Made by a program: the position numbers and the translations under genes
Shown here: positions 21,971 through 62,737 of the stretch, one piece after another
Layout of the letters: each line of letters begins with the position of its first letter
How positions within the stretch are numbered: the stretch's first letter is position 1
Assembly (NCBI GenBank): GCA_014905635.1
Contig: JABVCE010000014.1
Location: forward strand, 496,001 to 560,000
DNA from: Scenedesmus sp. PABB004
Lineage: Eukaryota
Reading direction: 5' to 3'
DNA: 64,000 nucleotides
The notes under the pieces: model-generated
What the model was told of the DNA's origin: nothing
The model's database searches: none
The model's input: only the letters and a program-made list of their open reading frames with translations

Positions 21971-22100
21971 TGCGCTCCCAGCGCGCGGCCCTCCGTCCCC
22001 GCGAGCGCAGAGCGCCGAATGCGCGCGGCGAGCCGCGCGGCGGCAGCAGCAGCGGCGCACGCCGGGCACCGCACGCCGCGCCCGCGCCCGCGCCCGCGCC

Positions 22101-22167
<67 letters not shown>

Positions 22168-29041: not shown

Positions 29042-29118
29042 TGACCACGATCAGCCCATCTTGACGTGCTTCTTCTAACGTCAAGAAGAGGCACATCAAG
29101 GTGGGCTGATCGTGGTCA
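29042..29118 (+). ncRNA. Hairpin H4, pre-miRNA-like, 35-bp stem
   Basis: 29042-29076 pairs with 29084-29118: 32 Watson-Crick pairs, 2 G-U, 1 C/A mismatch. 7-nt loop AACGTCA. Confidence 0.7.
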
Positions 29119-29142
29119 CACGCCGCGCTGGCCGCCCGCCCA

Positions 29143-29194
29143 CCGTGGTCGGACGCCTCGCTGACCGTGAGGCGAGGAAGGCGACTGACCATGG
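29143..29194 (+). ncRNA. Hairpin H5 (weaker)
   Basis: CCGTGGTCGGACGCCT (29143-29158) pairs with AGGCGACTGACCATGG (29179-29194), with 2 G-U and 1 mismatch. Confidence 0.45.
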
Positions 29195-35594: not shown

Positions 35595-38500
35595 CTACAG
35601 CGAGGTCGCGAGCGCGCTGTCCACCAGCGCCGTCAGGAATGCGCAGTCAGCCTTGCGCCGCGCCTCGCACGCCCCGTCCCCGCGCGCGCACGCCGCGGCG
35701 CAGTCGGGCTTGCGCACGCGCCCCACGTCGCAGCGCAGCCCCGCGCACGCCTCGTCGTCCGCGGCGCACGCCGCGCCGGCGGCCTTGCAGGCCGCCGGCG
35801 CCGCGCGCGCGCCCGAGGCGTTGGGGCAGCAGGTGCCGGCGCGGCGGAAGTAGTCGTACACGCACTTGCTGCCGGGGCAGCACGCGCCGCCGTTGGGGCA
35901 GGAGCCGCAGGGCCCATACGCGGGGATGCACTGCGTGTCGGGCTGGCACGCCCAGAGCTGCTTCGCGCCTGGGTAGGCCAGCGGTACCGGCTTGCACGTC
36001 GTGCCGGAGCAGCACGTCGCGCCGTCGGCGGCCGCGCCGCAGAACTGGAACGGCCGCCGGCACACTGCCGGGCACGTGGCGTTGGAGCAGGCACCGCCCA
36101 GCGTCCACACGCCGCCGCAGGCCCTCTTGGTCGCCTGGCTGCACGTGCCGGTCGACGCGACGCAGCAGGCGCCCTTGGGCGCGGGGCAGGTGCCGCGCGC
36201 GCACTTGGGCCGCCCGCTCCAGGCGCCGCCCGTCGCGTTGCAGGAGTTCTGGTCGACGACCGCGCAGCTGCCGTCGCCGCGGCAGCACGCGCCGGGGGTG
36301 CCGGGCAGCGGGTTGAGGGCGAGGCAGGCCGCGAGCACGTCGGCGGGCGCCTTGTCCGTCCAGAAGATGCCGCCGGCCTTGTCGCAGCCGTCCGCGGTGC
36401 GCGGCACCACGCGGCGCTGGCTGGAGATGCAGCACGATCCCAGCACGGCCACGCGCACGCGGTCGCGGTTGTTGGTCGGGTCGGCGTCGCTCGACGCGCC
36501 ACTGGTCGCGACGTTGTCGTAGCTGCCCGCCGCGTCGGCGCGCGCGACGATCGTGACGCGCCGGCTCGCGCCGAGCGCGAGGCTCGCAAACTCGCACGCC
36601 ACCTCCTGCCCCGCCCGGTTGCACTCTGCGGGCGCGGGCGGGCGCGGGCGGGCGTGGTCGGGGCGGGCAGCACGCGTCGGCGCGCGCGCCGGCGGCGGCA
36701 GCGGCGGCGGCGGCAGGACGGCGCGCGCCGCGCTGGCGGCGGCGCCGGCCGAGCGCCGCGGCGCCGCGGCGCCGCGCGCGCGGCGCACCTGGCAGCCCTG
36801 GCTCCACCGACACGACGGTCAGGCCCGCCGGGAGCTGGTCGTTGACCTTGACGCCGGCCGCGCCGCCGAGGCCGGCCTCGGTCTTGACGGTCAGCGTGAA
36901 GGTGAGGGTGCCGCCGACAATCACCGAGGCGGGGCTGACGGTCTTTTTAACGCTCACGTCCGGCACGTCCTGGGGCGGGATGGCCACGCGGCAGCACACC
37001 GCCGCGTTGATCGTCGTGCTCGCCGCGTTGGCGGGGTTGGCGACCCAGCCGTCGGGGCAGCGGAAGGGCGCCGGCGCGGGCGCGTTGAGGCGCGCGTTCG
37101 CGCACGTCGCGATGCAGCAGTTGCTGGCCCGCGCCGGCGCGGCGCGCGCCGAGGCGTTGACGAGCGCGCCGGCGGGGCACACAAACGGCATGGGATTGCC
37201 GGGCGCGCCCGGGCGCGTGTCGGCGCAGGTGGGCCTGTCGGCCGGCGGCGCCACGCACTGCGCCTGCCCGCAGGCCTTGTCGGCGGTGAAGCCGCCGCCC
37301 GCGCAGTCGGCCGCGCGGAGCACGTGCGTGCAGTAGTCAGGGCCGGTCTGCGTGCAGCAGGCAGCCTGCGGCGGCCGGGGCGGCGGCCGACGGGCGCGCG
37401 GGTGAGCGCGAACGCGCGCACGCACACGCGACGCACGGCCCGCACACGCGAGCGCGGGGCGCGGGGCGGCTGGCTCGCCGCCGCACCAACCTTGGCAGCC
37501 ACAGTGGCGTTGCCGCTGTTGTTTTCCTTGATCTGGTCGCCCTTGGCCGTCACGGTCGCTGTGTTCACGAACGTTCCCGCGCCCAGCGCCTTGGCGCGCA
37601 GCGCCAGCACGCGCGTCTCGCCCAGCGCGAGCGTGCCCAGCGTGCAGGTCACGACCTGGACCTCGCCCGGCTGGCCCTTGTAGTCGCAGCCTGCGCGGCG
37701 CGGCACAGTGGTGGGCGGCGCGCCCGCCGGCCCGGCCGTTGCGCGCGCGGCCCGCCCCGGCTCGCGTGCAGCAGCCGCCACGCGCGCGTCCGCGCCTTCT
37801 CCCGCGCGCGCGCCCCTCCCCCTGCGCGCGCGCACCCGCGAGCTGGGCGCCGACGAGCGCCAGGCCGGCGGGCAGCGAGTCGACGACGACCACGGCCTGC
37901 GCGCCGTCCACGGGGTCGGCCTCAACGACGTTCACCGTCAGCAGCCAGTCAAACTCCTCGCCGACCAGCACCGCGCTCGCGCTCGCAGCCTTGCTGAGCT
38001 TGACGTCGACCGCCGACTCGGGCGCGATGCCGGGGTCGATGCAGCACACGCCCTTGCTCGGGCTGGTGCTGCCCGCCGCGCTGGCGTTGAACGAGAGGCC
38101 GAGCGCGGTGCAGTTGAAGCGCGCCGGCGGCGAGCGGCCGGGGCTCACGTCGGCGCACGTCGGCGCCGGCGGGTTGACCGGGTTGGTGGTGCAGCACTGA
38201 CCCTGGTTGACCGTGGTCGAGTTGACCGACCGCTCGTCAAAAAGGAACGCCCCGCAGTTGAAGCGCGGCGGGTCGGCGCTCGCCACGAGGCCCGGGTTGC
38301 CGCAGGTGGGAGCACAGCACGCCACCACGCTCGGCGGCGACACGGTGTCCGATGCAGCGGCGCGGGTCGTGTAGGTCGGGCAGCTGCTGAAGGGGCTGGG
38401 CGCGGCGCTCGCGTCGACGTTGCCGCACGTGCGCGTGCAGCACGCGGTGGGGCTCGGCGGCGCGGCAGTGCCCAGCGCAGGGTTGTAGGCCGTGAAGGTG

Positions 38501-40516
38501 GGGCAGCCGCTGAAGGGCACGGGCGTGCCGCCCACGGTGGGTGTGGTGTCGGCGCAGCTGCGGCGCGGGCGGCGGCGGCACCGGCAGGTGAGCGCAGCCG
38601 AGCAAGCGCGACCAGAGCGAGCAGCCCGCGGCAGCGAGCATCACGCGCTCACCTCGGGGGGTTGGGGACCTGCGGGTTGATCAGGGTGGTGGTGCAGCAC
38701 GTGCCCTGGCTGGGGTTGGGTGTGGTCAGGGCGTTGTCGTTGAACAGAAACTGCCCGCAGTTGAAGCGCGGCGGGCTGGCGCTCGCCACGAGGCCCGGGT
38801 TGCCGCAGGTGGGAGCGCAGCACGCCACCACGCTCGGCGGCGACACGGTGTCCGATCCGGCGGCGCGGGTGGTGTAGGTCGGGCAGCTGCTGAAGGCGCT
38901 GGGCGCGGCGCTCGCGTCGACGTTGCCGCACGTGCGCGTGCAGCACGCGGTGGGGCTCGGCGGCGCGGCAGTGCCCAGCGCAGGGCTGTAGGTCGTGAAG
39001 GTGGGGCAGCCGCTGAAGGGTATGGGCGTGCCGCCCACAGTGGGCGTGGTGTCGGCGCAGCTGCGGCGCGGGCGGCGGCGGCACCGGCAGGTGAGCGCAA
39101 ACAAACAACCGCGACCAGAGCGAGCAGCCCGCGGCAACGAGTGTCAATTGCTCACCTCGGAGAGCTGTTGCCCTGCGGGTTGATCAGGTTGGTGGTGCAG
39201 CACGTGCCCTGGTTGATGGTGGTCGAATTGACCGTGCTCGCGTCAGGCACAAACAGCCCGCAGTTGAAGGGCGTCGCGGGGGTGGTCCTGTTCACATTGC
39301 CGCAGGTGCGCGTGCAGCACACGTCAACGCTCGGCAGCGTCGTGTTGGCCTGCGCGGCGATGAAGCTCGTGGAGGCCGGGCAGCTCACGGGCACGGGCGC
39401 GCTGCCCACGGCGGGCGTGGAGTCGGCGCAGCTGCGGCACGCGCAGGCAGTGCAGCGGCGCGGCGGATGAGCTGGCTGCGCTCGGCGGCAGCGGCGGCAG
39501 CGGCGGCAGCGGCCGGCGCGCGGCCGCCAGGGGCGCGCTGCTGCGCCGCGGGCGGCTGCGGCGCCTCACGTGGCGGTGCGGGCGGTGCAGCAGACGGCGG
39601 CGCTGGGGCTGGTCGTGTTGACGGCGGCGTTGTTGAACACGTCTGTGCCGCAGTTGAAGCGCGTCGCGGGGCTGGTCCCGTTGACGTTGCCGCAGGTGCG
39701 CGGCGTGGGCGTCGTCCCACAGGTTGCAAGGCACCCTGCGTCGCGCTGCAGGTTCACGGCCACCTCGCACACCTGCGAGCACGCACGCAGCACAGGACTG
39801 AGCGGACTCTCTCTCGCCGCTGAGTGCGCGCGCGCGGTCAGCGGGGCGCGCCCGCGCCGCACCTTGGAGGGGGGGTCGACCGTGCAGCTGTTCTCGTTGC
39901 CGCTGTAGGAGCCGCCCCCGCCGCAGGTCCGGTTGTTGCCCTGATCAGGCCAAGGCATGTTGCCGTAGAATTTGCCATCATGGAAGTACCAGAGCGTGGC
40001 GGTCAGGCTGCTCGGCACGACCATGGTGATGCTGCCGGTTTCCTTGCAGTAGTCTTCGCCGCCACTGGATCCCGTGTTGCAGGCCTTGAGCGTGCAGTGG
40101 TTGTCGTCGTCGTACGTCGCCGTGCTGCCCTTGATGCAGCAGCCCCATGAGATCGCCGACTTGCACTTGGCGTTGCCGCTGCCGACGACGAGGGACCAGG
40201 TGACCTCGTACTGCTGCTGCGCGTTGCAGGTGCAGGTGAAGCGCGCGCAGGGGCCGCCGACGCTGTACAGGTCGCAGGTGGTGTCGGGGCAGCTGTTTGC
40301 CGCCGCGCGCGTGGAGTCGGGCGCCGCCGGCGCGGGCGAGCGGCGCGGCCGCGGCGAGCGGCGCGGCCGGGGCGAGCGGCGCTGCAGGAGTGCGCGCTCC
40401 GCGCTGCCGTGCGGCTCGTCGGCGCCCCAGGCGCCTGGAGCGTCGGCCGCGGCCGCGTGCGCCGCCGCCAGCAGCAGCGCCAGCGCCGCCAGGCGCAGCT
40501 GCTGCCCCGCGGTCAT
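35595..40516 (-). CDS. Secreted Cys-rich multidomain protein with two DUF11 (conserved repeat domain)-like modules and GACC repeats
   Basis: Signal peptide MTAGQQLRLAALALLLAAAHAAAA, RALLQ site, TCAD/TCGN..CC repeats, DVKLSKAAS..VLVGEEFDWLLTV..VVVVDSLPAGL, DVSVKKTVSP..VGGTLTFTLTV..VNDQLPAGL..DPTNN, then PGACC/KGACC repeats. Confidence 0.85.
38251..39140 (-). repeat. Recent exon+intron tandem duplication, ~503-bp period
   Basis: Near-identical CADTTPTVGGTP.PFSGCPTFT..CCTRTCGNVD..CCAPTCGNPG exons, with similar flanking introns. Confidence 0.88.
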
Positions 40517-42164
40517 CGTGGCGTGAAGTGCGCGGGCGGGAAGCACCAGGAGAGAATGCGCCTCGGAGGTAGTGGCGGCGCGGCACCTGCGCCAGAGCGG
40601 CCGCGGGACAGCAGTCGCCCGTGACCCCCGGGCGACCGAGGAACCGGGCCGCACGTACGCCCGCTAAGAGGGATTTTGATGCAGCCCAGCCGCGCTCGCG
40701 GCGGCGCGGCCCGCGCCGTGCGCTGATCGTCGTCGAGCCACCGCACAGCGATGGGCCGCGCCGGCGACCCGCTCGCCGCGCTCGGCCGCTGCGCGCTCAC
40801 CAGCGAGGTCTTGGATCCTGGGAGCGCTCGTCCGGAGGTCGGGCGCGCCGGCTGCAGGCGGAACCGCGCGTCGGAGGAGTACGCAGCGCAGGCGTGCGGG
40901 CGTGCGGCCGCGTTCAGGCACGCAGAACGTCGGGCGGGGCGGTTCTCGCAGGTCTGGCGGGGGCGGTGGGCGAGCGGGCGGGTGGTTGGTGCGTGCGCGC
41001 GCGCGCGGTCGCCGCGACCAATGGACGCGGCGCGCAGAGGCGCCGGTTGCGGTGTCGCCGCGCGCGAGGGTGCTCCTGGGGCCGTTTCGGGCAGCGCTAG
41101 CGCGCGTCGCCGCCGCGCCCACCTGCGCGGTCGAGGCCTTCAACCAGCCTGGCAGATGGCGGCAGCTGGTTGGCTGGGTTGGCGCGCGCGTGCACGAGCC
41201 CCGCCCGAGCGATCTCTGGGACAGACTTCCTGTGTGTGAGCTGCCACAGGACTGCGGAGCGGCAGCGCATCGCCGTCACCAGCTGCGCGTGCGGCTGCCG
41301 CTCGCCGCCAAATCCTGGTCAGGATCGCAGCAGCCCAGCGGCCTGACTCACGGCTCACTGCAGGCACCACGGGCATCCTGGAGTCGCACGGGCGGCGCAG
41401 CAGCTCACGGACGGCGCAGCGCGCGCGGCACGCGCCTGCTCGCGCGTGGTCGGGCGCACGGCGGAGCCGCGCCGGCGCGCGCCGCCCACCTGCGTGCGGC
41501 TTGGCCACGCACGTGGCCGGGGAATTTCCTGGGATCGGGGTGGCCTCCAAGCGAGCATGCTGGGGTTCATCATCGCAGCTGCTGCGCGGGTGTGCTGGCG
41601 GCAGCGCGACGCGCGGCAGCGCGCGAGGCGGGGTGCGGCGGCGGCGCCGCGCGTGGGCGGGTGGGTGGGCGTGGGCGCCAGGCAGGCGTCTGCAGGCGGT
41701 GCCCTGGTGCGCGTGCCGGCGGTGCCGTGGTGCGCACGTGCGCGTGCTCTGCGCGCGGGCGCGGCGACTGCGGCGCCGGGGCCCCGGCTGCGAGCGAGGG
41801 TTTCGCCGCTGTTGCATGGCGTGCCCGCGTGTCTGCCCGAGTGAGGCGCCGCACAAAGTGTGTCACGTTGGCCGCAGCGCGCTCGCCAAGCGTGCTCGAC
41901 GCTCGAGCTCAAGGCCCGAGTTGCGGCTGGCCCGCGCGCGCGCGGCTCGCACGCCTCCAGCGCGCTCCTTGGAGCATTCGGACCTCTCACTGGGAGGCGC
42001 GGGTGCGGAGGCGGCGCGCGGCGACTGCACGTGGCCCACGCCCACTACAGTACTGAGCCCGCCGGCCGATCAGGGCGCCCGGGCGCCATGCGGGTGCGTC
42101 CAGCGCGCGGGAGCGGCAGGAGGACGACGCTGCCGCGCCGGCGCGCTGCGGCGTCGCAGCCGGG

Positions 42165-44335
42165 ATGCAGCACGCCGCCGCCGCTGGTTCGGCAGCAGCG
42201 CTGCCGCGCCGGGCCGCCGCGTGCAGTGCGTGGCGGCCCGGCTGGGGGCCTCCCTGGGAGTGGCCTGGCCAACCGCTGCGCGTGCGCTGCCCGCCGGTGC
42301 TTCAAGCCCCGCCGCCGCCGGCGCCGCCGCCGCCGCCGCCCGCGCGCGCGCAGGCCCAGCGGGCGCCGACGGGGCCGGGGCCGGGCCTGGGGCACCGGCG
42401 CGGCCGGCCCGCGGCCGCCGCGCGGCCGGCCGGCCGGCCGCGCGCCGCGCGGCCGGCCCCGCGCGCGGCCAGCGACGGCGAGCGCGACCCGATGCTGCTG
42501 CGCCTGCTCGGCCTGGGCGCCGGCGGCGGCGCCGCGCCCCGCGGCGCCGCGCCGCCGCCGCCCGCCACGTCGGCGCCGGGGCTGGGCGCGCTGCGGCAGG
42601 GCGTGATTAACCCGCACCACCCGGTCTACCGCGCGTGGCGGGGGCTGCTCATCGGCGCGGCGGCGCTGACGGGCGTATTTGTGCCGTGGGAGCTGGGGTT
42701 TGGCGACGCGGAGCGGCTCTACTCGTTTGACAGCTGGGCGACGTGGCTCGACCTCGGCCTGGTCGCCCTCTTCCTGGCTGACATCGGTGCGCGCGCGGGC
42801 CTGGCAGGAGGGCCCTGGGCGGGCCAGGGCGGGCGGGCCTGGCAGGAGGGGCCTGGGGAGGCAGAGGGGCGTGGAGGGAGGGCCGGCAGCGCGCGCGCGC
42901 GTGCGCGCATGCGGGCGCGAGCGGGCGTGAGTAGCGCCACGGAGCAGGGCGGCGGCGGGCGGGGCGCTGCCGCGTGGCAGCCCCCGCCGACGCGCGCGCG
43001 CGCGCCGCCGCCGGCGCCGCCGCTGCCGGCCCGCCCAGGCGTGAGCCACGCGGTCGCGTACGAGACGGACGAGCTGCTGGTCGACGAGCCGGGGGCGATC
43101 GCGGCCAACTACCGGCGCCAGCGCCTCGCGCTCGACCTGCTCAGCGCCATACCCTTCGACTGGATCGCCCTCGGCGCCGCCGCCGCGCTCGGCGCCGCGG
43201 CGGCCGGCGGCGGCGGCGGCGACGGCGGCGCCGGCGCCGCCGAGGGCGCCGCGGCCGCGCCGGCGCTGCTCGGCGCTGCAGCCGCGGCGCTCGGCCACGC
43301 GGGCGCGGGCGCGGGCGGTGCCGTGGCCACAGCGGGGCCCGTGCCCGCGCTCGCCTGCCTCAAGGGCCTGCACCTGGTGCGCCCGCGCCCGCGCCCGCCG
43401 CCGCGCGTGCGCCCCTCCCCTCCCTCTCCTCTCCCCCCCCCCTCCTCTCTCCCCCTCCCTCCCTCCCGCGCTCACTCCTCCCTCTCCCTCCACCACTCCC
43501 TCCCGCCCTCCCTCCCTCCCGCGCTCGCTCCTCCCTCCCTCTCACTCCCCCCCCCCCGCAGGTGCGGCTATACCGTGTCCGCTGGTTCTTCCGGTATCTC
43601 GAATACGACCTCACCGTCAGCCTCCTCACCGTCACCGTCGCGCGCAACCTGGTGCGCCGCGCCGCGCGCGCGGACGCCGCGCGCGCGCGGCGCGGGGCGT
43701 GCCCGCCGGGCGCGCGGCGCGGGCCTGGGCCGGGCCGGCGCCGCGCCGCCCGCGTCCTCACGCATCCCTCCCTCCCCCCCCCCCCCCCCCCCCCCCCCTC
43801 AGGTCATCGTGCTGTACCTCACGCACTGGGTGGCCTGCGGCTTCAACCTGCTCGCCCGGGACGGCGGCTACGACCCCGACCTGCTCGTCGGGCTCAACCC
43901 GACGCTCTTCGCCAGCATCAGCGCGCCAGACCAGTACGTGTACTCACTCTACTGGGCCGGTGAGTGAGGTTGAGACACTCTGTTTATTGCCTCAAGGGCG
44001 TGAGCGAGCGATGCGGCGATTGTTTGTTTTGTATTGCAAGGGGCGCTAGGGTTAAGGGCGTCGCGTGGGCCCAGACACGGGGTGGCGCGAGCGCCGCGCC
44101 CGCTGACGCCGGCGCGCTCCCCGCGCCCGCCCCTGCCCCGCTGTGGCCGCGCCCCTTCCGTGCCCCCCCCCCCCTCAGTGACGACGCTCGCGGGGAACGA
44201 GTGGAACGGCATGGACGCTGTGACCGACATGCGCCAGGTCGTGGCCAACACCACACGCGCGGGGTGCGCCGCCCGCGCGCCGCGCGCGCGCCGCGGCCGC
44301 CGCGCCGGCGGCCGCTCCTGCCTCAACCCTGGAAG

Positions 44336-44381
<46 letters not shown>

Positions 44382-45606
44382 AGGGTGTTCCTGCTCTTCA
44401 ACATCGCCCTCGGCGCCTACATCCTGTGAGCACAGCACGCACAGCACACAGCACGCATGCGCACAGCACGCACAGCACGCATGCGCACCGCGCGCACAGC
44501 ACGCTCGTGCAGCGCATGTGCAGCCCTGCGCGCGCGCGCGGGCTCACGCGCCGCCGCTGCCACCGCCGCCCGTGCCCGTGCCCCTTCTCCCCCCCCCCCC
44601 CCCGGCCTGCCCCCAGCGGCACCATCACGCTGCTGGTGGTCAAAAACGACGAACGCACGGGGCGGTGCGCGCGCGCGCGCGCCCCACCCCTCCGCCCGCC
44701 GCCGCGGCCGCACCCCTGCCCGCCATCGCCCCTCCGCGGCCGCCGCCCAGTCACGCCCCTCTCTGCCCGCCGCCTAAACCCCGCCGCTTAAACCCTGCCA
44801 CCATGGCCGCCGCCTGAACCCCGCCAGGTACCGCGACCTGAGCAGCAACCTGAAGACCTACTCCACGCTCAACGCGCTGCCGCCAGAGCTCAAGGACGAG
44901 ATGCAGGAGCACCTGCGCCTCAAGTTCAACCACCAGGAGGCCTCGGACGACCAGGTCAGGAGCCGTGCCGCGCCGCGGGCCCCGCCGCCGCCGCTCGCCG
45001 CCGCGCACCGGTCGGTTTTCGCCGCCGCTCGCCCCGTTGGTTTTTGTCGTCAACGAGCGGGCGGCGTTCGTCCATCAACAACGCCCTGTTAAACCCTGGC
45101 GCCCGCGCCGCCGCCGCGTCCCCGCTAAACCCCGCCCCCAGGTGCTGTCCATCTACCCCACCACCATCCGGCGCCGCATCCTGCGCCACCTGTACCTCCG
45201 CCACCTGCGCGCGTCGTACCTCTTCAGGCGCGTGCGGCGCCAGCGCGGCCGGGGGAGGGACGCACACACGCGCGCGCGCGCGGCCGCAACCCCGGGGAGT
45301 TGGCCGCCGCGCGCCGCCTGTACCCACGCCCACGCGCCGCGCACCCGCTGCGTCCACAGGGGCACGCCGCGCAAGTACCTGGACGCGCTGCTCGCGGCGT
45401 CGCGGCTGGAGCTGTTCCGCCCCGGCGTGGAGATGCTGTCCGCGGGCGACGCAGTGAACGAGCTCTTCGTCGTCGTCGCGGGCCGCGTCGAGCTGCGGTG
45501 CGGGGCGCAGGCGGTTTGCGGGGCGCCCAAGCCGCCCTCCAAGCCGTCCCGGCCGCCCCGCCGCGCGCTCGGCGCCGGTCGCGCGCGCCGCCCGGCCCAC
45601 GCCCGC

Positions 45607-45641
<35 letters not shown>

Positions 45642-48600
45642 TGCCGGGCCGCGCCGCAGGTCGCCGCTGGACCCGTCGGCGAGTCAGTACGACTGGGGCG
45701 GCGACGGCGCCGACTCGCTGGCCACGCTGGACCCGATGAGCTCCATGCTCGGTGCGTGGCAGCAGGGTTTAGGGGGTTGAGGGGAGAGGGTTTAGGCCTG
45801 CTGCTGGCTGTGCTTGCCTGCAGCCGCGCCGGCGCGTGCCTGCGCGCGCCGACGCCGCGCGCTGCCCGCGGCCCGGCGTTCGTGGTCAGGCGACTACGAC
45901 GTGGACGGCCCCGGCGGCGGCGGCGGCGGCGCGGCCGGCCCCGGCGTCGGCGTGTACATGGGGCAGCGCAAGGTGCGGCGGCGGCGGCCCCGGCGGCGGC
46001 GGCGGCGCGGTCGGCGGCCGCGCACAGGCTGCTGCGCGCGCGGCGTGTGGGTGGCGCCGAGGCCGCCGCCGCCGCCGCCGCCGCCAGGTGCTGGGCACGG
46101 GGGAGCTGTTCGGGGAGATCAGTTTTTTCACAGAGATTCCGCAGATGGCCACCGTGCGGTGAGGATGCCACGACACACGCCCGCCCGCGCGGCGGCGCCC
46201 GTGCCCCTGCGGCCGCGCGGGCGCCCACACCGCTCGCGCCACGCCGCGTGCGCCGCGCAGCTCGCTGAGCACGGTGCGTGTCATGGTCATCAGCCGCGTC
46301 GCTTTCGAGTCGATCGAGCGCAACTTCCCCATTGCCAGCCGCCTGGTGCTGGAGAACCTGCGCCGCCGCAGCGAGGCCGAGGTGCGCGGCGCCGCGCGCG
46401 CGCGCGCGCGCGCGCGGCCGCCGCCGCCGCCGCCGCCGCCGCCGCGGCGGGGGCGCCCGGGGCGGTCAGGTGTGTGTGTGCGCGCCGGCGCCGGCGCGCG
46501 CGCGCGGGCCCGACCCCGCCCCGCCCCGCGCGTGCGTGTGCCAGGTCGCTGCCGAGTTCCCTGGGCTGGCTGGCAACCGCGCGGAGCTGCAGCAGCTGCT
46601 CGCCGGCTGCCCGAGCAGCCTGATGTACAGCTGGGCTAGCCCTGAGCTGGTGAGCGCCCCGCCGCGGGGCCTCCTGCGCCCGCCCGGCCGCGATGCGCAC
46701 GCGCGCGCCCGCCCTCGTTGTCGTGTGCCGGAGCAGCGGGTGCTGCTCACGTGCCTGCGCCGACGCACCACCACCGCCGCCGCCGCGCCGCCGCCGCGCC
46801 GCCAGGTGGAGCTGATGATGTCGGGCGGCGACGGCCCCGCGCCCGCGGCCGCGCTGCCGTCGCCCGCCGCGCTCGCCGCGCTGAGCAGCGGCAGCGGCAG
46901 CTGGGACGACGACCCCGTTGCCATCGCCGCGCTCGCCGCCGCGGGGCGGGCCCCCGGCGCCCGCGGCGCGGCCGCGCGCGGCCCCGCGCCGCCGCCGTCC
47001 AGCTACGGCGCCGGCGCCGGCGGCGGCGGCTCCCCGCCCGGCGGCGTGCTGGGCGGCGGGAGCAAGCTGAGCGCGCGGCAGGAGCTTGTGCTCAGCAACC
47101 TGGTGCGCGTGACGGCCGTCATAACGCAGCACATGGCCAAGCAGGACGAGGACCGCACCACCGACTTCCTGTGAGTCCGGGGCGCGCGTGGGGCAGCGCT
47201 GGTTGCTGGCCCCTGCGCACCACCGCACGGCCCCGTGGCCGCCCTGGTCAAACGCCGACGCCGCGCCGCCCCGCCGCCCCGCGCCGCAGCTACGCGGCGA
47301 CGCGCGGCGACGCGACCAAGCTGCGCGCCATGCTGCAGCAGGGGTGCGCGCGCGCGCGGGGACGTGGCACGGCTGCAGCAGCGGCACCCCGCGCGCCCCG
47401 GCCGGGGCCCCGCCCCGCCGCGCCTTCCTCTCCCCGCCCACCGCTCCGCGCCACGCCGCGTTGCGCCGCGCCGCCCCTGCCGCAGCTTCAACCCCGACAG
47501 CGCCGACTACGACGGCCGCACCGCGCTCATGCTTGCGTGCGTGCGCGGCCACCGTGACGTGGCAGACCTGCTCCTCGCCGCCGGTGCGCGCCGGCGCCGC
47601 CGCCCGCGCGCGCCCGGGCGGCCCGACTGGGCAGCTCCTCACCACCAGCCGGCCGGCCCGTGCGCCCCACAAAAACCAAAAATCTAATCACAAAATTAAC
47701 CGCGCCGCAGGCGCCGACCCGCGGCTGGACGACAACCTGGGGCGCTCCGCGCTGCTCGAGGCGTGCTACCACGGGCATGACGCCATCATCGACACCCTGG
47801 TCAACTCCGGCGTGCGCCTGGTCAGCGGCGGCCCCGGCGCGCCCGGCCGCGCCGTCACGAGCGGCAGCGCGCGCAGCAACATCAGCGGCCGCGGCGCGGG
47901 CGTGCCCGGCGGCGGCGCCGGCGGCAGCGGCGACCCCGCCGCCGCGGCGGGCTACGGCAGCCTCAGCGGCGCCGGCGCCGCCGGCGCCGGCGCCGGTGCC
48001 GAGGGCGCGCCCGCGGACGGCGGCGCCAGCGCGAGCTGGTCGCTGCAGCTCGCGAGCCTGCTGTGCAACTCGGTGTACGAGTGCAACCTGCCACTGCTGC
48101 GCCGCCTGCTGCGCGCCGGCGCGCCGGTCGACACGGGCGACTACGACAAGCGCACCGCGCTGCACATCGCCGCCGCCGAGGGCAACGCCGTGATGGTGCG
48201 CGCGCCCGGAGGGGGGGGGGCACGGCACGGCACGGCCGGGGCGGGCAGCGGTGCGGGCAGCGGGCCGCGCCCGGCCGACCGGGCGCGCCTCGCCCGCCGG
48301 CCGCGCGACTGACGCCGCCGCCGCGCCCACCGCCGCGTCCGCCGCCGCGTCCACACAGCTGCGCGTGCTGGTCGAGGAGGGCGGGGCAAACATCTTCGTT
48401 CGCGACCGCTGGGGCAACACGCCGCTGGCGGAGGCCAAGCGCGTGGGCGCCGCCATGGTGGTCACATACCTGGAGGCCGCCTCGACCGCGGCGGCCGCGC
48501 GGCGCGCCGCGGAGCACGAGGCCGCGTGGCAGGCGCGCGCGCTGGAGGAGCAGCGCCGCCAGAGCGCGGCGGCGGCGGGCGGCGCGCCCGCGGCGGCGGG

Positions 48601-49111
48601 CGGCGGCGGCGCGCCGGCGCCGGCGCCGGCGCCGCGCGCGGCGCCCGTCTCGCGCGCGGCGCTGGAGGCGGAGCAGCAGGCGCGGGCCGAGGCGGAGCTG
48701 CGCCGGCAGCAGCTCGCGCAGGCGGTGCGCGTGCGCGCAGAGGTGCGCGGCGGCGCGCGGCAGCGCAGCGTGGAGGCGGTCAGCCAGCTGCTGCAGCTCG
48801 CCGACCAGGCGCAGCAGGCGCTCAAGGTGAAGGCGCAGCAGATTGACTTGGAGCTGGCAGACCGCAACCAGCGCGCGCAGGCCGGCGGCGACGCGGCGGG
48901 CCCGCCCGGCGGCGGCGCCGCCGACGCCGCCGCGTGCGACGGCGGCAGCCCTGACGCCGGCGGCGCCGCCGCGCCGGAGCCGGGTGCCGGTGCCGGCGCC
49001 GGCGTGCCCGGGCGGCGGGGCACAAACAACATTGTCAAGCTGGGCAGCGTGCAGGCGGCCGCCGGCCCGCCCGCGGCAGCGCCGACGCCGGCTCCCGGGC
49101 AGCAGCAGTAG
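42165..49111 (+). CDS. Plant Shaker/AKT-SKOR-like 6-TM channel with cNMP-binding domain and ankyrin repeats; atypical pore
   Basis: INPHHPVYRAW, DLLSAIPFDW, S4 LVRLYRVRWFF, LYLTHWVAC, YVYSLYWAVTTL, FNIALGAYILGTITLLVVK, GELFGEISFF, ankyrins DYDGRTALMLA and DYDKRTALHIAAAEG, DRWGNTPL. The start codon is uncertain. Confidence 0.92.
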
Positions 49112-50437
49112 CGCGAGCGGAGCCCGCCGTGGGGGTGGGGGGAGGCATTGCGCGCACTCGCTGCGCGTGGCACGCAGTGCGCGTGGGAGAACGGGGGCAG
49201 CGCGGGGGTGTGCAGGCCAAGCCGGCTGCCAATTGGTGGCCGCGCCGCGCCAAACATGTGTACACGACAAGCTGTGTGTGTGTGTGGGGGGGGGGCAGTT
49301 CGTTTGTACATCGGACGCTGCCAGGCCTGTATGCTAGGGGGTGTGCACCCCCTGGCGGCGCACGGGCGCGCACTGACGCCCCGGTCTCAGCGTACAGATC
49401 GGGTGCAGAGCAGTCAGCCTGGGGGCTGGGGCAGCTGGGCGCGTGCTGGGGCAGCTGGACGCGTGCTGGGGGTTGGGCGGCAGGCCGCGGCGCCGCCCGT
49501 CGCTTTCTTGTCTGGGTTTTTGTGCCACGCACCCACAACCACGCGTCACGTGCTGTTGCGCGTGCTGCAGCCCGGCGCGCATGTGGTGCCGCGGCCGCCG
49601 CTGCGGCGGACCCAGCGGGGGGCCGCAGGTTGCGGTCGCGGCACGGCAGGAGCGCGCGCGCGCTTGGATCACTGCACTGGCATTGCGGGCCCGCGTGCGC
49701 ACGCGACGGTGGGTGGGTGTGCACCCACGTGGGTGCGGTCCAGGAACTCGCCGCGCCCGGCCCGCCGCCCGCCCGCAGCGCGCCCCTGGTCTTGTCGGCC
49801 AGCTCTCAGGCCAGTTCCGTCGGCGCCGCCCGCCGGGGCGGGATCAGCGGTCACAGCGGGGGGCCTGCCCGCGGCCACTGCCGGTCGCGGCGTGGAAGGG
49901 GACTCCCGCTCCCCCACGGAGAGGGGGCGCGGCGCGGGGCGGCGGCGCGAGATGCCCGTGGTGGCGCGCGCGCAGCAGCGGCGCGCGCAGCGGCCGGTGA
50001 CGCCTGCGCTCACAACCGCCGCCGGCACGGTGCGGCGCGATCCAAGCGCTACCGCCCAGCCAAGGGAGGCGCGCCGCCGCAGCTCAGCCGGCGGCGCGGA
50101 ACATCGGCGTTGGGCGCCGGCGATGGGCGGCCGCCACGCGGCGGCTCAGCACGGTCTATGCTTGTTACAGTCCCTGGTGATGTAATGCGCGGTGGGCGGA
50201 GGCGTCTCGCGGCGGCGGGAAGGTACGTAATTTGTGCCCGTGCGCCCGTGCATCCCGTGCTGCGGGTTCAGCACTACGGGCGGCCGCCCTGCCCGCGCCC
50301 GGCGCACACCCACCTGATCTGACCAACCCAGGGCGCCACCGAGCCACGCAAGCGGCGCGGCGCCCGCAGCCAGCAGAGCCGAACCTCCCTAGCACGCCGG
50401 GCTGCCCCTGGGGCGGGGGGCTGGCCTGGCGGTCGCC

Positions 50438-53400
50438 ATGCGGCTGGCGGCCGCGCTCACGGTCTGGGTCGCGCTGCTGGCCGCGCACCCGGCGCACAGC
50501 GCGGCCGACGCCCAGGCGCTCGCACAGGCCGCGGCGCCGCCCGGCGCCTGCAAGACGGGGTACGCCGCCGACTCCACCGGCTGTGGTGAGCACGGGAGGC
50601 CGCGCTGGGGTGCGCGCCGCTATAAACTGGGGGGCCTCCCCGCAGCTTCGGCGCCGTCGGCCGTGCGCGGACGGCCGTGGCCGCGTGATCGGGCCCGCAC
50701 GCGCGGGCAGACGGCGGCGCGGGCGCGCGCCGGCACCGGCGTGAGCTGCTGCCGGCGTCGGCGGCGCGCGAGCAGCGGGGCCGGTGACGCCGCGGCGCCG
50801 ACGCCCCGGCGGCCCGCGCACGCCCCGCGCCTCCGCCCGCGTAGCCTGTGCGACCGGCTGGGGCTCGCACGTGCCCGGCTGGCCCGACGCGACCTACCCG
50901 ACGCGGCGGCCGACCTGCGCGCTCTTCACGCCGGGCAAGGACAAGCCGTACAAGGCTGGCACCACCTTCCCGCCCGCCGGCAAGGGCGCGGGGAAGTGCT
51001 TCTGCTTCCGCTGCCCCGAGGGCTTCACGACGAAGGGCGGGCGGCTGAACCGCGCCGACGCGGCGTGCAAGCGCGCTCCGACGCTCACGCTGGTGGTCGC
51101 CTACACCGTGTCCGCGCCCGGCGGCGCGGCGTGCAACACCAAGCTCAGCGCCGCGGCGAGCGCCAAGCTGCTCGCGGCGCTCAAGCGCACGGCCAAGGTC
51201 GACGCACAGCAGCTGCTGTCGGGCGCGAGCTGCGCTGCCTCGCCGGTGCGCGGCGCCGCCGTGCGCGAGGGCGCGCGCGCGCGCGCGCGCGCGCCTGCCT
51301 TGCAGCAAAGGGGGCGGGCCGGCGGCGCCGCGCCACGCCGCCGCTCACGCCCGCCCGCGCGCCGCAGGCCGGCACGGTGTCGGGGAGCGGCGCTGGCAGC
51401 CAGCAGCTGGTGCTGCGGCTGTCTTACACGGGCGCCGACGCGCCGAAGCGTCTCGCGCAGTTCCGCTCCGTGGCACGGCGGGTCAACCTGCCGCCGAGCG
51501 CCTCGGCCGGCCCGTGCGCGTTTGGCGTGTGCGCCGCCGTGTCCAAGGCGTCGGGTGGCGCGGCGAGCGTCAGCGCGGCCGTCGCAGACGTGACGTCCTC
51601 GTTCGTGCAGCCGGGCGGCAACCCCTCGCCGGCGCCTGCAGGCGCGCGGCAGCTGCGCTGCGCGCGCGCGCGTGCATGCGGCCGCCCGGCCGGGCGCCGC
51701 CGCCCGCGGCGCTGCCGACCGCCCGCCGCCCCGCCCCGCCCCGCCCCGCCCCGTCCCGCCCCGCCCCGCCCCGCCCCGCCCCGCCCCGCCCCGCCCCGCC
51801 CCGCCCCGCCCCGCCCCGCCCCGCCCCGCCCCGCCCCGCCCCGCCCCGCCCCGCCCCGCCCCGCCCGCACAGGCTGCACGCTGACGGGCTGCGAGGTGTC
51901 GGCGTGCCGGACGGGCACGTGCAACGCCGCGAGCGGGCAGTGCAGCTTTGCCAGCCTGGTGGACGGCACCGCCTGCAGCGACAGCGCCGTCACGGGCGCG
52001 TGCCGGGGCGGCTTCTGCATCGGGTTCAACGCCAACATCGAGGCCGCCGCGCAGGGCGTGACGGAGCCCGTGATCTTCAAGGCGCGCTTCGCGCCCGGCG
52101 GCGCCGGCAGCGCGGCGGGCGGGTCGGTGACGCTCAACGGCGTGCGCAACGGCAGCGACGTCGGCGAGGTGCTCGGCACGCTCTACGACGACGGCAGCCG
52201 CCTGCACGAGGACCGCTTCGCCGGCGACGGCGTCTACTCCAACGTCATCCTCCTCACCTTTGAGGAGCGCGACGTGCCGGTCTACAAGTCCTTCTACATC
52301 TCCCTGCTCGGCGCGGCCGACCGCAGCGCGCAGGTCGGCATCGCCGCCGTCACGACGCGCATCGACACGCTGCTGGAGCTCTTCCCGACCGAGCAGGTCG
52401 TCACGACGGTGCAGGCGCGCGTGGACGAGATCGTCGCCGCCGGCGCGAGCCCCGAGGCCGCGATCAGCGCAATCTATGACCTCCTCATAGAGTACAACGC
52501 GGTCGACGGCGGCGGCAGCGGCGGCGGCGCCGCCGGGCGGCGGCGCCTCGCGGCGGTCAACGTGACCTCGGTGCTCGACCGCGTCGACGCGGCGACCGTG
52601 CGCCGCGCCACGGAGCGGCGCGTCGAGTTCAAGACGCGCGAGGGCTTCCCGCTCGTCGTCTACGTGCCGGCGACCTACGGCACGCGCCTGACCGGCGGCA
52701 AGTGCGGCGGCGCCCGCCGCCTGCTCGCGCACAGCAGCAGCGCGCAGCAGCGCGCGGCGGGGGCGCCCAGCGGTTGCGGCGGCCAGCTGGCGCTGGCGGC
52801 GCCGGTCGGGCCGGAGCCGCAGCGCAGCGGCAGCGGCAGCGGCAGCGGCAGCGGCGGCGGTGCAGCCGCAGCCGCCGCGCTGCGCGCGCCGAGCGCCGCC
52901 GCGGCGGCGCTCGCGTCGGCGGCGCCCGACTACGCGAGCCTCGCGCGCAGCGCCGCGCGGCGGCGGCTGCAGGCGGAGCAGTGCTCCACGCCCAAGGGCG
53001 AGGTGCTGGTGCTCGCGCCGTATTACGCGGAGAACCAGTGCACGCCCGCGGGCGACGAGGCGGGCACGATCGCGGCGCTCTACGCGGCGGGCGGCTACGC
53101 GGTGACGTTCAAGTGCAACGACGCCGACGCGTGCCCCGCGGGCCCGCCGGGGCTGGACGACTTCACCGGCTGGTCGCGCTACGCGGCGGTCGTCGTGTCG
53201 ACGCGCGGCGACGACGACCCGGCCGGCAACAGCCCCGTGCTGCTCACGCGCGCGCCGATCGACGTGCAGGCCTACATGCTCGACTGGCTCGCCGGCCGCG
53301 TGCTGCTGACCGCGGACGGCCTCGCCGCGCTGCGGCCGAGCTGGTTCGCCAAGTACCGCGACGCGCCGGGGTCGGAGCCGGGGCGCACGGTCGTGTACCT

Positions 53401-56400
53401 CGCGTCGGACCGCTCCGCGGTCAGCCCGCCCGCGTCGGAGCGCGACCGCGTCGAGGAGAAGGGCTTTGCCGCCGCGTTCTGGTCCATGGCCGGCGCGGCC
53501 GGGTTCGCGGGCTACACCGGCTACCTCTCGCGCACGTTTGACGCGCCGCCGGGCGTCGCGCTCGCGCGGCACCTGCTCGGCGGCGGCAAGCTTGACGGCG
53601 ACGCGGGCACGGGCGCGACGGACAAGCTCACGGGCGCGGCGCTGCGCATCTACGCGTACACCCCCGGCGCGACGCTGCTGGACCGCTGCAAGTCCAAGTG
53701 CGACGGCGTCGTGTGCAGCGCGCCGGCGTGCCCCGACGGCGGCGACGGCGGCGGGACCTGCAACAGCCTGACGGGCACGTGCGACGTCAGCTGCTGCGCC
53801 CTGCCCGACGGCGCCGACTGCACGCTGCGCGGCGTCAAGAGCAAGTGCTTGAACAAGAAGTGTGTCGGTGAGTCGGCGCGCCGCGGGCGGGGAGGGGATG
53901 GATGGGGGACGGCGCTCAGCCGGCGGCGTCGGGCCCGCCGCAGCGCCGGCCCACGCCGCCCCCGGGGCCGCCCCCGCCGCCCGCGCGCCGCCGCGCAGAC
54001 AAGTGCTCGGCCGCGGTGTGCAGCGCGCTGCCGTGCAAGGATCTGGTGGACACCGGCACCGTCTGCAGCCCCACGTCCGGCCTGTGCCCCACCCGGGACC
54101 AGGCCGACGGCACCAGCTGCAGCTTCCAGGGCGGCCTGGGGCGCTGCATCTCGGGGAGCTGCAAGGGTGAGCGCGGCGCGCGGCGCGGCGCGGGCGCGCC
54201 CGTGCAGCAGCACTGCGCCAGGCCGACAGACGGCGTGGCTGAGCTGGCGCCGCCGCCCCTCCTCCCATCCCGGCAGGCCTGCTGCGCGTATATTATCGGG
54301 TGAGCGGCCCCGAGACGAGCTTCCCAGACTCCCTCACCTCTGCGGCGGCGATGAACGCGTTTGCCACCAGCGTGCACGCCTCGCTCGGGCTCGACGCCTC
54401 CTACCCCATCAGCCGCATCAGCGTGCTCGTCGTGCAGGCGCCGACGCGCAGCGCGCGCGGCCTGCTCGCCGCGGCGCCTCCGGCCACGACCGCGCGGCTC
54501 GCCGCGGAGCTCGTGGACGACCTGCCGGCGGCGCGCTTCTTCAGGGTGATGGGCTCGGGGCCGCGCATGCGCTTCACGCCGCCGTTCGGGTCGGATCTGT
54601 CCGCGGCGCGCACCGACGCAGACGGCAATGAGGTCGACGTGGTCATCGAGAACACAGGTGGGTGCCACCGCGCCGCGGCGCGCGCACGCGCACGCGCACG
54701 CGCACGCGCACGCGCAGGCGCGCGCACGCGGGCGCGGCGCCGGCGCTCACGCGCGCCGCCGCGCGCGCGCCGCGCCCGCAGGCACGGTGGACCCCTGCGC
54801 CAGCAAGGTGTGCCCCGAGAAGGATGCGTGCACCAAGCCCGCCTGCGACAGCAAGTCCGGCGCGTGCACCTACACCCCCGCGAACGAGGGCGCCGCGTGC
54901 GGGGCCAACGCCACCTGCACGGCGGCCGGCAAGTGCGCCCCCAAACGTGAGCGAGCCGCGCGCGCTGCGAGGCGCGGGCGCAGGGGTGAGCTGCTGCGGG
55001 CGCCGCCTCGCGCCTGACGCCCCGCCCCGCCCGACGCCGCGCCCCGCCCCCGCGCCACCAGTGGCCGACGCTGACGTCGGCTCCCAGGAGACGCCCGCTG
55101 ACTCGCCCCCTCCTGTCTCACCCTCTCCTGACACACCCCCACCCTGGTTCGACCCCTGCGCGGGCAACCCCTGCGCGAGGGTGGACGGCGCCGAGCTGAA
55201 CCGTACCTGCGAGGTGGTGGGCGCCTCGTTCCGCTGCACCTGCAAGGCCGGCTACACCTGGACCGGCTCTGCGTGCACAAGTAAGCGCCCCCTGCGGCTG
55301 CACGGCTGCGGCAGCTGCGTAGCTCGCGCAGCGCGGCTGACCGCTGCCCGCCGCCTGCTGCGCCACAGACACAGACGAGTGTTTGCCCAGTGACCCGTGC
55401 GCCAACATCACCGGGGCAGTGCCGGGCACCTGCGTCGACAGAGCGGCGCCCCAGACCGGCTTTGTCTGCAACTGCACGGCCGGGCTCAAGTGGGATGCAA
55501 GCTTGGCGACGCCCGCTTGCGTGGGTGAGTTCAAACGCGCGCGCCGGCCCGTGGGCGGGGACCCGGCCTGTGCGCTCCGGCGCGCGCGGCTGACGCGGCC
55601 GTCGCCGCCGCCGCACGCAGACATTGATGGCTGCAGCGGCAACCCCTGCGCCAGCATCGCCGGCGCGGTGTCAACCAGCTGCCAGGACCTGCCTGCGCCG
55701 GCCAGCGGCTTCACGTGCAACTGCACGGCCGGGCGCACGTGGAACGCGAGCTTGGCGACCCCTGCCTGCGTGGGTGAGTTGAAGAGACGCTCACGCATGA
55801 GCGGGGACCGGCCAGTGCGCTCCGGGGGCGTGTGTGCGTGACCATCACGGCCGTCGCCGCCGCCGCACGCAGACATTGACGGCTGCAGCGGCAACCCTTG
55901 CGCCAGCATCACCGGCGCGGTGTCGAGCAGCTGCCAGGACCTGCCTGCGCCGGCCAGCGGCTTCACGTGCAACTGCACGGCCGGGCGCACGTGGAACGCG
56001 AGCTTGGCGACCCCTGCCTGCGTGGGTGAGTTGAAGAGACGCTCACGCATGAGCGGGGACCGGCCAGTGCGCTCCGGGGGCGCGCGTGCGTGACCAACGC
56101 GGCCGTCGCCGCTGCCGCTGCCGCACGCAGACATTGACGGCTGCAGCGGCAACCCCTGCGCCAGCATCACCGGCGCGGTGTCGAGCAGCTGCCAGGACCT
56201 GCCTGCGCCGGCCAGCGGCTTCACGTGCAACTGCACGGCCGGGCGCACGTGGAACGCGAGCTTGGCGACCCCTGCCTGCGTGGGTGAGTTGAAGAGACGC
56301 TCACGCATGAGCGGGGACCGGCCAGTGCGCTCCGGGGGCGTGTGTGCGTGACCAACGCGGCCGTCGCCGCCGCCGCACGCAGACATTGACGGCTGCAGCG

Positions 56401-62704: not shown

Positions 62705-62737
<33 letters not shown>

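Follow-up and report, generated by a model that had tools for sequence, protein, structure and literature searches.

What does an ion channel conduct that is built like a plant Shaker potassium channel but has no potassium signature in its pore? This question is raised by a gene of the green alga Scenedesmus sp. PABB004 that lies in a stretch of 64,000 nucleotides, here called the window (contig JABVCE010000014.1 of assembly GCA_014905635.1, forward-strand positions 496,001 to 560,000; all positions below are counted from the first letter of the window). A model-generated description of the window, made without database searches and referred to below as the sequence-only reading, had recognized a Shaker/AKT-like channel with ankyrin repeats that lacks TxGYG. 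We consider it probable, at roughly 0.6, that the gene encodes a voltage-gated cation channel that is not selective for K+ and that would possibly be permeable to Ca2+.

The K+ signature of plant Shakers, T-x-G-Y-G-D, is absent from the P-loop of the deduced protein, and G-N-E-W-N-G stands there. Column by column, Gly-Asn-Glu-Trp-Asn-Gly takes the place of Thr-Val-Gly-Tyr-Gly-Asp, with Glu at the position of the first Gly, Trp at that of Tyr, and Asn at that of the second Gly. This register is given by a gap-free HMMER alignment of the relative P0006 (ywsvttlagnewngvdnv) with SKOR (yfavvtmatvgygdihav), in which an insert of five residues follows only later, before S6, and a MAFFT alignment with 33 GYG-bearing and 14 LGD-bearing algal relatives has the same register, with E-W-N on G-Y-G and A-G-N three residues earlier. 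In an AlphaFold2 model of P0006, the pore helix extends to ..TTLA and the loop starts from GNEW. The sequence-only reading had left room for an alternative GYGD exon, and a six-frame scan detected none in the gene: G[YFL]G has 91 matches in the window, 19 of them within 40000-50500, none of which is pore-like in context, and the sole plus-strand match between S4 and S6 (43722, GAGLGRAG) is inside the Gly/Ala/Arg-rich intron 3. The stricter pattern [TS]xG[YFL]G has three matches in the window (13386, 23452, 24839), all of them outside the gene.

As the filter is encoded next to splice sites, much depends on the gene model, which comprises 20 exons and 19 introns with 3960 coding bases on the plus strand, that is 1319 amino acids and a stop codon, with zero internal stops. 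Exon anchors were placed by tblastn with the relatives P0006, P0173 and P0016, a script enumerated the in-frame, stop-free GT/GC...AG pairs between adjacent anchors, and the joined peptides were scored against four orthologues; hand inspection was used for the intron 45228-45359 and for the boundaries of exon 12. As putative start codon we take the ATG at 42165, the first in-frame Met 5' of the conserved N-terminus; a further exon may lie upstream. Exon 4 ends with TAC TGG GCC G, preceded by CAG TAC GTG TAC TCA CTC and followed by the donor GTGAGT at 43960, and after the acceptor CCCCTCAG at 44178/44179 the reading continues with TG ACG ACG CTC GCG GGG AAC GAG TGG AAC GGC ATG GAC. The next intron, 44264-44383, precedes G GTG TTC CTG CTC TTC AAC. 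Both introns came out on top of 8 candidates each, with scores of 332 versus 311 for the runner-up in the case of 43960-44178, and 182 versus 171 in the case of 44264-44383. Over the two junctions the protein reads YVYSLYWA, VTTLAGNEWNGMDAVTDMRQVVANTTRAG and VFLLFNIALGAYIL, and the spliced peptide across both pore introns is YVYSLYWAVTTLAGNEWNGMDAVTDMRQVVANTTRAGVFLLFNIALGAYIL. In the orthologue proteins P0173, P0174, P0016 and P0006, YW[AS]VTTLAG is continuous across the site of intron 4, and because these database proteins read through identically, the pore junction is not a chance reading. The splice junction that the sequence-only reading had drawn within 43945-44424 is thus the best-scored candidate and agrees with unbroken orthologue proteins.

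Eighteen of the introns are of the GT-AG type. The sole GC-AG intron is 45228-45359 (AG/GCGCGT...CACAG/G), where every GT donor breaks the frame and the GC donor yields SYLFRGTPRKYLD, an exact orthologue match. The tblastn match of exon 3 (43562-43654), with 31/31 residues identical to P0173, extends one codon beyond the exon, and the tail encoded by exon 20 is colinear with the tail of P0173. The G+C content is 72-84% in each 2-kb bin of the window, and the coding sequence is split into short exons. Poly-C tracts of up to 44 C are found directly 5' of CAG acceptors (44338-44381, 43747-43799, 43547-43558) and act as the polypyrimidine tract in this genome, and intron 6 (44426-44616) contains CACAGCACG-type short repeats. 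By its structure, this is an intact nuclear gene with many introns from a chlorophyte alga of very high G+C content, the nearest named relatives being Scenedesmaceae.

The scaffold around this pore is that of plant Shakers. A sequence search of the PDB with the relative P0016 (pore to cyclic-nucleotide-binding domain, CNBD, no ankyrins) gave SKOR (1.9e-31), KAT3 (5.3e-29), KAT1 (3.6e-27), GORK (2.3e-26) and AKT1 (3.5e-24), whereas the non-Shakers TAX-4 (1.7e-10), AtCNGC5 (2.6e-10), HCN1 (6e-9) and CNGC15b (5.5e-8) followed far behind, as did KCNH1 and SthK (1.7e-10 or worse); plant CNGCs thus score about 20 orders of magnitude below plant Shakers with this query. The match of full-length P0006 to SKOR (2.3e-62) consists of three colinear stretches and includes the linker and the ankyrin domain, and the ankyrin region of P0006 alone gives a 107-bit match to that of SKOR. 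With the AlphaFold2 model of P0006 (34-row alignment, mean predicted local distance difference test, pLDDT, of 78.6), the best Foldseek matches are GORK and SKOR, at 2.4e-30 to 1e-26 over more than 800 columns. According to Pfam, the full-length relatives have ankyrin repeats and cNMP_binding and, with one exception, also Ion_trans; relative to the Ion_trans cut-off of 25 bits, P0006 (41.3) and P0099 (36.3) score above, and P0034 (23.9) and P0016 (19.1) below. From raw open reading frames of the window, Pfam recovers little because the exons are short: two of 11 scanned frames have matches, both to ankyrin (47125-48312, 47175-47687), and none to Ion_trans.

Most details of the deduced protein fit this placement. 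S4 reads K-x-x-H-x-x-R-x-x-R-x-R, with a basic residue at each third position (K, H, R, R) and then R. The CNBD cassette FGEISFFTEIPQMATVRS aligns via P0006 to SKOR fgeisilcnipqpytvrv with Pro-Gln in the same place, and Pro-Gln in the cassette marks the non-binding homology domain (CNBHD) of plant Shakers. Pfam includes a model of the KHA family, but there is no KHA among the Pfam matches of six relatives (E up to 0.01), and the C-terminus encoded in the window is an Ala/Gln/Glu-rich tail. S4, C-linker, cNMP domain and ankyrins, described as intact in the sequence-only reading, are colinear with P0006 (887 amino acids) and P0173 (1454 amino acids) in a frame free of stops. Judged by these similarities, the protein is a six-transmembrane, tetramer-type subunit of the plant Shaker lineage with S1-S6, C-linker, CNBHD and ankyrin domain, and the loss of TxGYG on an ankyrin-bearing plant-Shaker scaffold holds by sequence, fold and register. 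The gene, as predicted, belongs to the Shaker lineage by descent, yet it is not classed here among the K+-selective Shaker channels because T-x-G-Y-G-D is absent and there is no alternative exon.

The unusual pore is not private to this gene. Scanning 1.84 billion representatives with P0001 by HMMER yielded 195 proteins at E <=0.001, of which the best 150 are listed, and two word-index searches added 13 and 41 proteins, many of them species-named. P0001 is the one close protein to the exon from S5 to the pore helix (85% identity); its gene model ends directly after VTTLAG, and its metagenome locus L001 (1753 bases) ends before the pore. Besides the window, the same type of pore is found in at least nine database clusters, including those of Tetradesmus obliquus P0173 (1454 amino acids), Scenedesmus sp. 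NREL 46B-D3 P0174 and Hariotina reticulata P0016, and further P0006, P0015 (NEFNG), P0023, P0026, P0052 and the pair P0034/P0152 (1428/1437 amino acids; TTMAGNEWSD). The gene model is 69.8% identical to P0173 (1253 aligned residues), 70.6% to P0174, 81.5% to P0016 and 57.1% to P0006, and from S4 to the CNBD these values are 85% (P0173), 84% (P0174), 76% (P0016) and 58% (P0006), but VTTLAGNEWNG is identical in 11/11 residues in all four. By these comparisons, the filter is better conserved than the remainder of the protein. P0006 is an uninterrupted 887-amino-acid open reading frame on a 5.1-kb Logan contig, whereas the gene in the window has 19 introns, and this contig is probably a transcript assembly.

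The models of P0001, P0002, P0011, P0023, P0026 and P0042 enter unrelated sequence after TTLAG, NEWN or TTLSMV, which suggests that in the species of these relatives the filter itself is interrupted by an intron, at sites that are intron-free in the window. P0183, named 'AKT1' and from Scenedesmus sp. PABB004 itself, was considered as the product of the gene and rejected, since it shows no match exceeding 95% identity and lacks TTLAG; it belongs to a paralogous gene located elsewhere.

How old and how coherent this pore type is can be seen in an alignment of the S4-to-CNBD region with 60 rows (13 acidic-pore, 33 GYG-bearing and 14 LGD-bearing), from which all clade counts are taken. The rows are algal and unnamed relatives and the trees are unrooted; left out of the 60-row tree were cluster mates (P0165-P0172, P0153, P0154, P0034, P0044), P0143 with its very long branch, P0183 and P0198 with broken pore gene models, four multi-repeat proteins, and proteins with a match of <330 residues to P0006 170-600. 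In the column of the first Gly, the 13 acidic-pore rows have E 11 times, D once and Q once, whereas the other rows have G in 47/47 cases. The filter is AGNEW in this gene, the Scenedesmaceae, P0006 and P0152, SMVEAN in Micractinium conductrix P0175 and P0178, (S/T)xE[YF]GN in Symbiochloris P0177, P0056 and P0041, TTVDFGN in Apatococcus P0185, and TSPQYGN in Botryococcus P0099. Between filter and S6, these proteins have 20-22 residues versus 17 in the others, which is an insert of 3-5 residues (5 in this gene), and the insert carries an Arg in 13/13 clade rows and in 0/47 others; in the window it is found within ANTTRAG of exon 5.

When the pore columns are removed, a branch separates the 13 rows from the others, with 91/84 support (bootstrap/Shimodaira-Hasegawa-like approximate likelihood ratio test, SH-aLRT) in a careful 36-row tree, the same group being recovered in 90% of the bootstrap trees, and a quick 60-row tree, also computed with the pore columns removed, gave the clade an SH-aLRT of 98. 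A phylogeny with algal Shaker-like rows, as proposed in the sequence-only reading, thus makes this pore a clade feature. Sphaeropleales, Chlorellales and other Trebouxiophyceae contribute members, and GYG-bearing rows stand on several sides of the clade, which is therefore nested among GYG-bearing algal channels; one loss of GYG would be the simplest reading.

A second clade without GYG is seen in the same alignment. It has pores of the type ..FTG-LGDG.. or ..MGDG.., comprises 14/60 rows on one side of a branch (SH-aLRT 96; P0053, P0029, P0064, P0074, P0100, P0105, P0193, P0194, P0196, P0197, P0199, P0200, P0201, P0209), and all its named members are Chlamydomonadales (Chlamydomonas incerta, C. 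schloesseri, Volvox, Pleodorina, Tetrabaena, Edaphochlamys). Its Asp at the Tyr position presumably resembles the filters of NaK and CNG channels. As to names, P0199 of Tetrabaena socialis is called 'Potassium channel KAT1' and has the pore LGDS, and P0175 of Micractinium conductrix is called SKOR and has the pore SMVEANS.

How could such a pore work? The first filter Gly of K+ channels takes a conformation that is disfavoured by residues with side chains, and a side chain at this position would be incompatible with a K+ filter of the canonical four-site type. In its place, a shorter and wider filter would be lined by four Glu, one from each subunit. Acidic rings in CNG, NaK-type and Ca2+ channels bind divalent cations, and the channel may, like these Glu/Asp rings, bind or pass Ca2+ and would not select for K+ over Na+; passage of Ca2+ and block by Ca2+ are both possible. 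Because the basic periodicity of S4 is retained, gating by voltage would be expected, and because the Pro-Gln cassette is Shaker-type, gating by cyclic nucleotides would not. The conserved Arg of the insert may pair with the Glu, which is speculation. That the first Gly matters is known from GIRK2, where its replacement (G154S/G156S, weaver) leads to the loss of K+ selectivity (PMC9001731; this and the other papers are cited from excerpts). A tetramer prediction with four P0173 pore domains (residues 388-522) reached scores of 0.16 and 0.19, with the mark at 0.32, and is no evidence either way.

Several points weigh against a non-selective, voltage-gated channel. In the filter loop, the confidence of the structural model is moderate (block means 77 and 63). 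Every filter position except that of the Glu varies by subclade (AGNEW, SMVEAN, SSEYGN), and as there is also one Gln and one Asp, a selectivity mechanism common to the clade cannot be taken for granted. At its second basic position, S4 has His in 8/13 clade rows versus Arg/Lys in 28/33 GYG rows, a difference that may indicate weaker or pH-dependent voltage sensing (S4 is encoded at 43353-43600, exons 2 and 3). Start codon and exon 12 are uncertain, and the sole transcript-like support is the intronless frame on the 5.1-kb Logan contig, which comes from a 57%-identical relative and has a presumed cDNA status. More generally, sequence is not a safe guide to ion selectivity, a caution given for HCN versus Kv channels in the excerpt of PMC7576140.

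Alternatively, the gene product might be non-conducting or modulatory and join the alga's own GYGD paralogues in heteromers, the pore of which it would tune or poison, in the way that AtKC1 modulates AKT1. Tetradesmus (P0205, P0206) and Symbiochloris (P0188) do have GYGD paralogues beside the acidic-pore gene, and structures of AKT1-AtKC1 heteromers have been solved (7wm1, 7xuf), but the paralogues fall into different subclades, with an identity of only about 41% over the searched region. The strict conservation of the 11-residue filter stretch together with the clade-specific Arg fits a filter that is in use. Known silent subunits such as AtKC1, to our knowledge, retain GYGD, which also counts against such a role, and as a filterless subunit would on its own deprive a heteromer of K+ selectivity, this explanation largely merges with that of a non-selective channel. 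We regard a purely modulatory role as unlikely. Still less probable is that the channel is K+-selective after all by way of an unconventional filter. K+ selectivity without GYG does exist elsewhere (TMEM175), and relatives are named K+ channels, such as 'potassium channel SKOR' P0175 of Micractinium conductrix, but these names were assigned automatically, and the pore of P0175 is in fact SMVEANS. The gene studied here has changes at each of the five signature positions, including the first Gly that is invariant in 47/47 rows outside the clade and whose replacement abolishes the selectivity of GIRK2 in the excerpt of PMC9001731.

Kinship with plant CNGCs of group IVa (CNGC19/20), with AGN shared by descent, was suggested by the pore string and by a remark in the sequence-only reading on a TLAGNQ-type pore in these channels. 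According to the excerpt of PMC4955031, AtCNGC19 and AtCNGC20 do have an AGN triplet where others have GQN or GQG, and this triplet is defined as the equivalent of GYG (PMC4955031, PMC3362136). That part of the remark can be kept, but 'TLAGNQ' was not found in print, and an equivalent position does not follow: AGN in the algal protein is aligned three positions before GYG, the plant CNGC structures score 2.6e-10 and 5.5e-8 versus 1.9e-31 for SKOR, ankyrin repeats are present, and the land-plant CNGC motif is reported to match no algal sequence in the excerpt of PMC3362136. As AGN is off register and the similarity scores favour Shakers, the likeness is, on the alignments, coincidental, and common descent with CNGC19/20 is highly improbable. 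Equally improbable is a decaying pseudogene, a mis-spliced reading or an unseen GYGD exon. One GC-AG intron and the uncertainty of exon 12 and of the start codon leave some room for it, but the frame is intact through 20 exons, a G[YFL]G exon is absent from all frames of the gene, and the same pore occurs in at least nine database clusters of relatives, with a filter conserved above the rest of the protein. Because the gene is intact and its unusual pore is kept in orthologues, the pore is explained neither by decay, a possibility that the sequence-only reading had itself raised, nor by a missed exon. A non-selective, voltage-gated cation channel thus is the reading that we prefer.

In the literature, a eukaryote-wide survey of Kv-like and CNBD channels from 2020 describes strong departures from TVGY/FG as single channels and not as clades, with metazoan CNG channels as the only exception in the excerpt of that paper (PMC7576140). 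The acidic-pore group is a clade-level departure from TVGY/FG within the plant Shaker lineage, with its own insert and an invariant Arg. Literature text searches found no description of this pore, but Table S2 of PMC7576140 or a review on plant voltage-dependent cation channels may list such filters; full-text searches for the strings 'LAGNEW' and 'TLAGN' gave, among the matches listed, only unrelated ones. The presence of CNGCs in algae is disputed (excerpt of PMC3362136). Should this be a pore for Ca2+ or mixed cations, it would be a candidate voltage-gated cation-entry pathway for green algae and a natural experiment on the conversion of a K+ filter. A further-reaching proposal, which we make tentatively and with less than even confidence, is that core chlorophytes may lack land-plant-type CNGCs and have an old, conserved family of voltage-gated, Ca2+-permeable channels on a SKOR/AKT-type scaffold, in which the ring of four Glu at the first Gly and the Arg of the insert would be an undescribed filter architecture. 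Together with the LGDG clade, such a family would mean that the Shaker lineage has made non-selective or Ca2+ pores at least two times, independently of animal CNG channels and plant CNGCs. In any case, names like 'potassium channel SKOR', 'AKT2' and 'KAT1' on these algal proteins are not evidence of K+ selectivity.

Table 1. Coding span, exons and pore introns of the channel gene, with the protein regions assigned to them
Feature	Position in window	Strand	Content and basis
Whole coding span	42165..49111	+	script-built spliced model; start codon provisional
Exon 1	42165..42786	+	low-complexity N-terminus, S1, most of S2 (GVINPHHPVYRAW...LFLADIG); tblastn P0006/P0173; donor GTGCGC
Exon 2	43039..43376	+	S2 end, S3, Ala/Gly-rich S3-S4 loop, S4 start (..ACLKGLHL)
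Exon 3	43562..43651	+	S4 and S4-S5 stretch (VRLYRVRWFFRYLEYDLTVSLLTVTVARNL)
Exon 4	43803..43959	+	S5, turret, most of pore helix (VIVLYLTHW...QYVYSLYWA); ends one base into codon; 85% identical to P0001
Intron 4	43960..44178	+	219 bases, GTGAGT...CCTCAG; junction proposed in the sequence-only reading
Exon 5	44179..44263	+	pore helix end, non-GYG filter, post-filter insert (VTTLAGNEWNGMDAVTDMRQVVANTTRAG)
Intron 5	44264..44383	+	120 bases, GTGCGC...CCCCAG; 44-C run before acceptor
Exon 6	44384..44425	+	first half of S6 (VFLLFNIALGAYIL)
Exon 7	44617..44664	+	second half of S6 and gate region (GTITLLVVKNDERTG); 16/16 residues identical to P0016
Exon 8	44828..44954	+	C-linker (YRDLSSNLKTYSTLNALPPELKDEMQEHLRLKFNHQEASDDQ)
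Exon 9	45142..45227	+	C-linker (VLSIYPTTIRRRILRHLYLRHLRASYLF); followed by GC-AG intron 45228-45359
Exon 10	45360..45497	+	tblastn and junction scoring
Exon 11	45660..45751	+	loop inserted in CNBD beta roll (SPLDPSASQYDWGG...DPMSSML)
Exon 12	45890..45972	+	Gly-rich CNBD loop (GDYDVDGPGG...GVYMGQRK); hand-set, fitted to P0173/P0016; least certain exon
Exon 13	46088..46158	+	phosphate-binding-cassette region (VLGTGELFGEISFFTEIPQMATVR); Pro-Gln replaces the phosphate-binding Arg of cNMP-binding domains
Exon 14	46261..46381	+	CNBD end and C-helix (SLSTVRVMVISRVAFESIERNFPIASRLVLENLRRRSEAE)
Exon 15	46545..46649	+	linker (VAAEFPGLAGNRAELQQLLAGCPSSLMYSWASPEL)
Exon 16	46806..47170	+	low-complexity linker, then helix into ankyrin domain (..SARQELVLSNLVRVTAVITQHMAKQDEDRTTDFL)
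Exon 17	47290..47343	+	first ankyrin repeat (YAATRGDATKLRAMLQQG)
Exon 18	47486..47583	+	ankyrin repeat (FNPDSADYDGRTALMLACVRGHRDVADLLLAAG); Pfam Ank match on raw frame 47175-47687
Exon 19	47711..48195	+	ankyrin repeats split by Gly/Ala-rich loop; Pfam Ank_2/Ank_4 on raw frame 47125-48312
Exon 20	48359..49111	+	last ankyrin repeat (LRVLVEEGGANIFVRDRWGNTPLAEAKRVG..), Ala/Gln/Glu-rich C-terminal tail, stop TAG/TGA 49109-49111

The surroundings of the channel gene are ordinary nuclear neighbours. Among 68 raw stop-to-stop open reading frames of the window, nine have a Pfam match, and those on neighbouring frames (4973-8578 +, 20543-23476 +, 29110-30726 +, 35650-38640 -, 54632-55390 +, 60207-61373 -, 61572-63998 +) belong to the families GATA zinc finger, short-chain dehydrogenase (a fragment), CSL zinc ribbon, DUF11, EGF_3, Arf GTPase, and MBD plus FYRC. 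An open frame of 1412 codons at 50393-54628 + has no Pfam match but about nine tandem PAPPR pentapeptides near 51.7-51.9 kb and Cys-rich stretches, and it may encode a hydroxyproline-rich protein of the cell-wall type.

Among known systems, the plant Shakers SKOR, GORK and AKT1 are closest to the channel described here. They share the order S1-S6, C-linker, CNBHD and ankyrin domain, are the best matches in sequence and fold, and have in common with it the pore helix ..Y.S.YW..TT. and the Pro-Gln of the cassette where binders of cyclic nucleotides have Arg. Unlike in these Shakers, the filter here is G-N-E-W-N-G, an Arg-containing insert of five residues precedes S6, low-complexity loops and a long Ala/Gln-rich tail are present, and KHA is missing from the Pfam matches of the six relatives. 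The algal GYGD channels (Coccomyxa P0176, P0179 and P0180, Tetradesmus P0205 and P0206) share the S6/C-linker motif ITLLVVKxDE.TG.YR, and P0176 is about 49% identical to the gene product over the S4-to-CNBD region, but these channels have GYG or GFG in 33/33 rows and a filter-to-S6 loop of 17 residues without the Arg of the insert.

With Arabidopsis CNGC19/20, the protein has the letters AGN in the P-loop in common and, more generally, a non-GYG pore on a CNBD-channel scaffold. However, at the position of the triplet it has E-W-N, with AGN earlier, it has ankyrin repeats, in place of which plant CNGCs have calmodulin-binding sites, and the family is a different one by similarity. The bacterial NaK channel has a K+-channel-type pore with two transmembrane segments and an acidic filter residue at the Tyr position. 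In metazoan CNG channels, which have six transmembrane segments, an acidic residue likewise substitutes for part of GYG in a pore of the K+-channel type; their TIGE filter bears a Glu (excerpt of PMC7576140). In both kinds of channel this goes along with non-selective conduction that interacts with Ca2+. In those channels the acidic residue is at the Tyr position, which is the arrangement of the algal LGDG clade, whereas the Glu here is at the first Gly, within GNEWN, and the cassette has Pro-Gln; similarity is also low, with 1.7e-10 for TAX-4 (P0016 query) and 1.5e-4 for CNGA1 (P0001 query). The weaver-type mutants of GIRK2 are changed at the very same filter position, and there K+ selectivity is lost (excerpt of PMC9001731), but they represent a pathological point mutation in an inward rectifier and not, like the algal pore, an evolved and conserved filter with accompanying changes.

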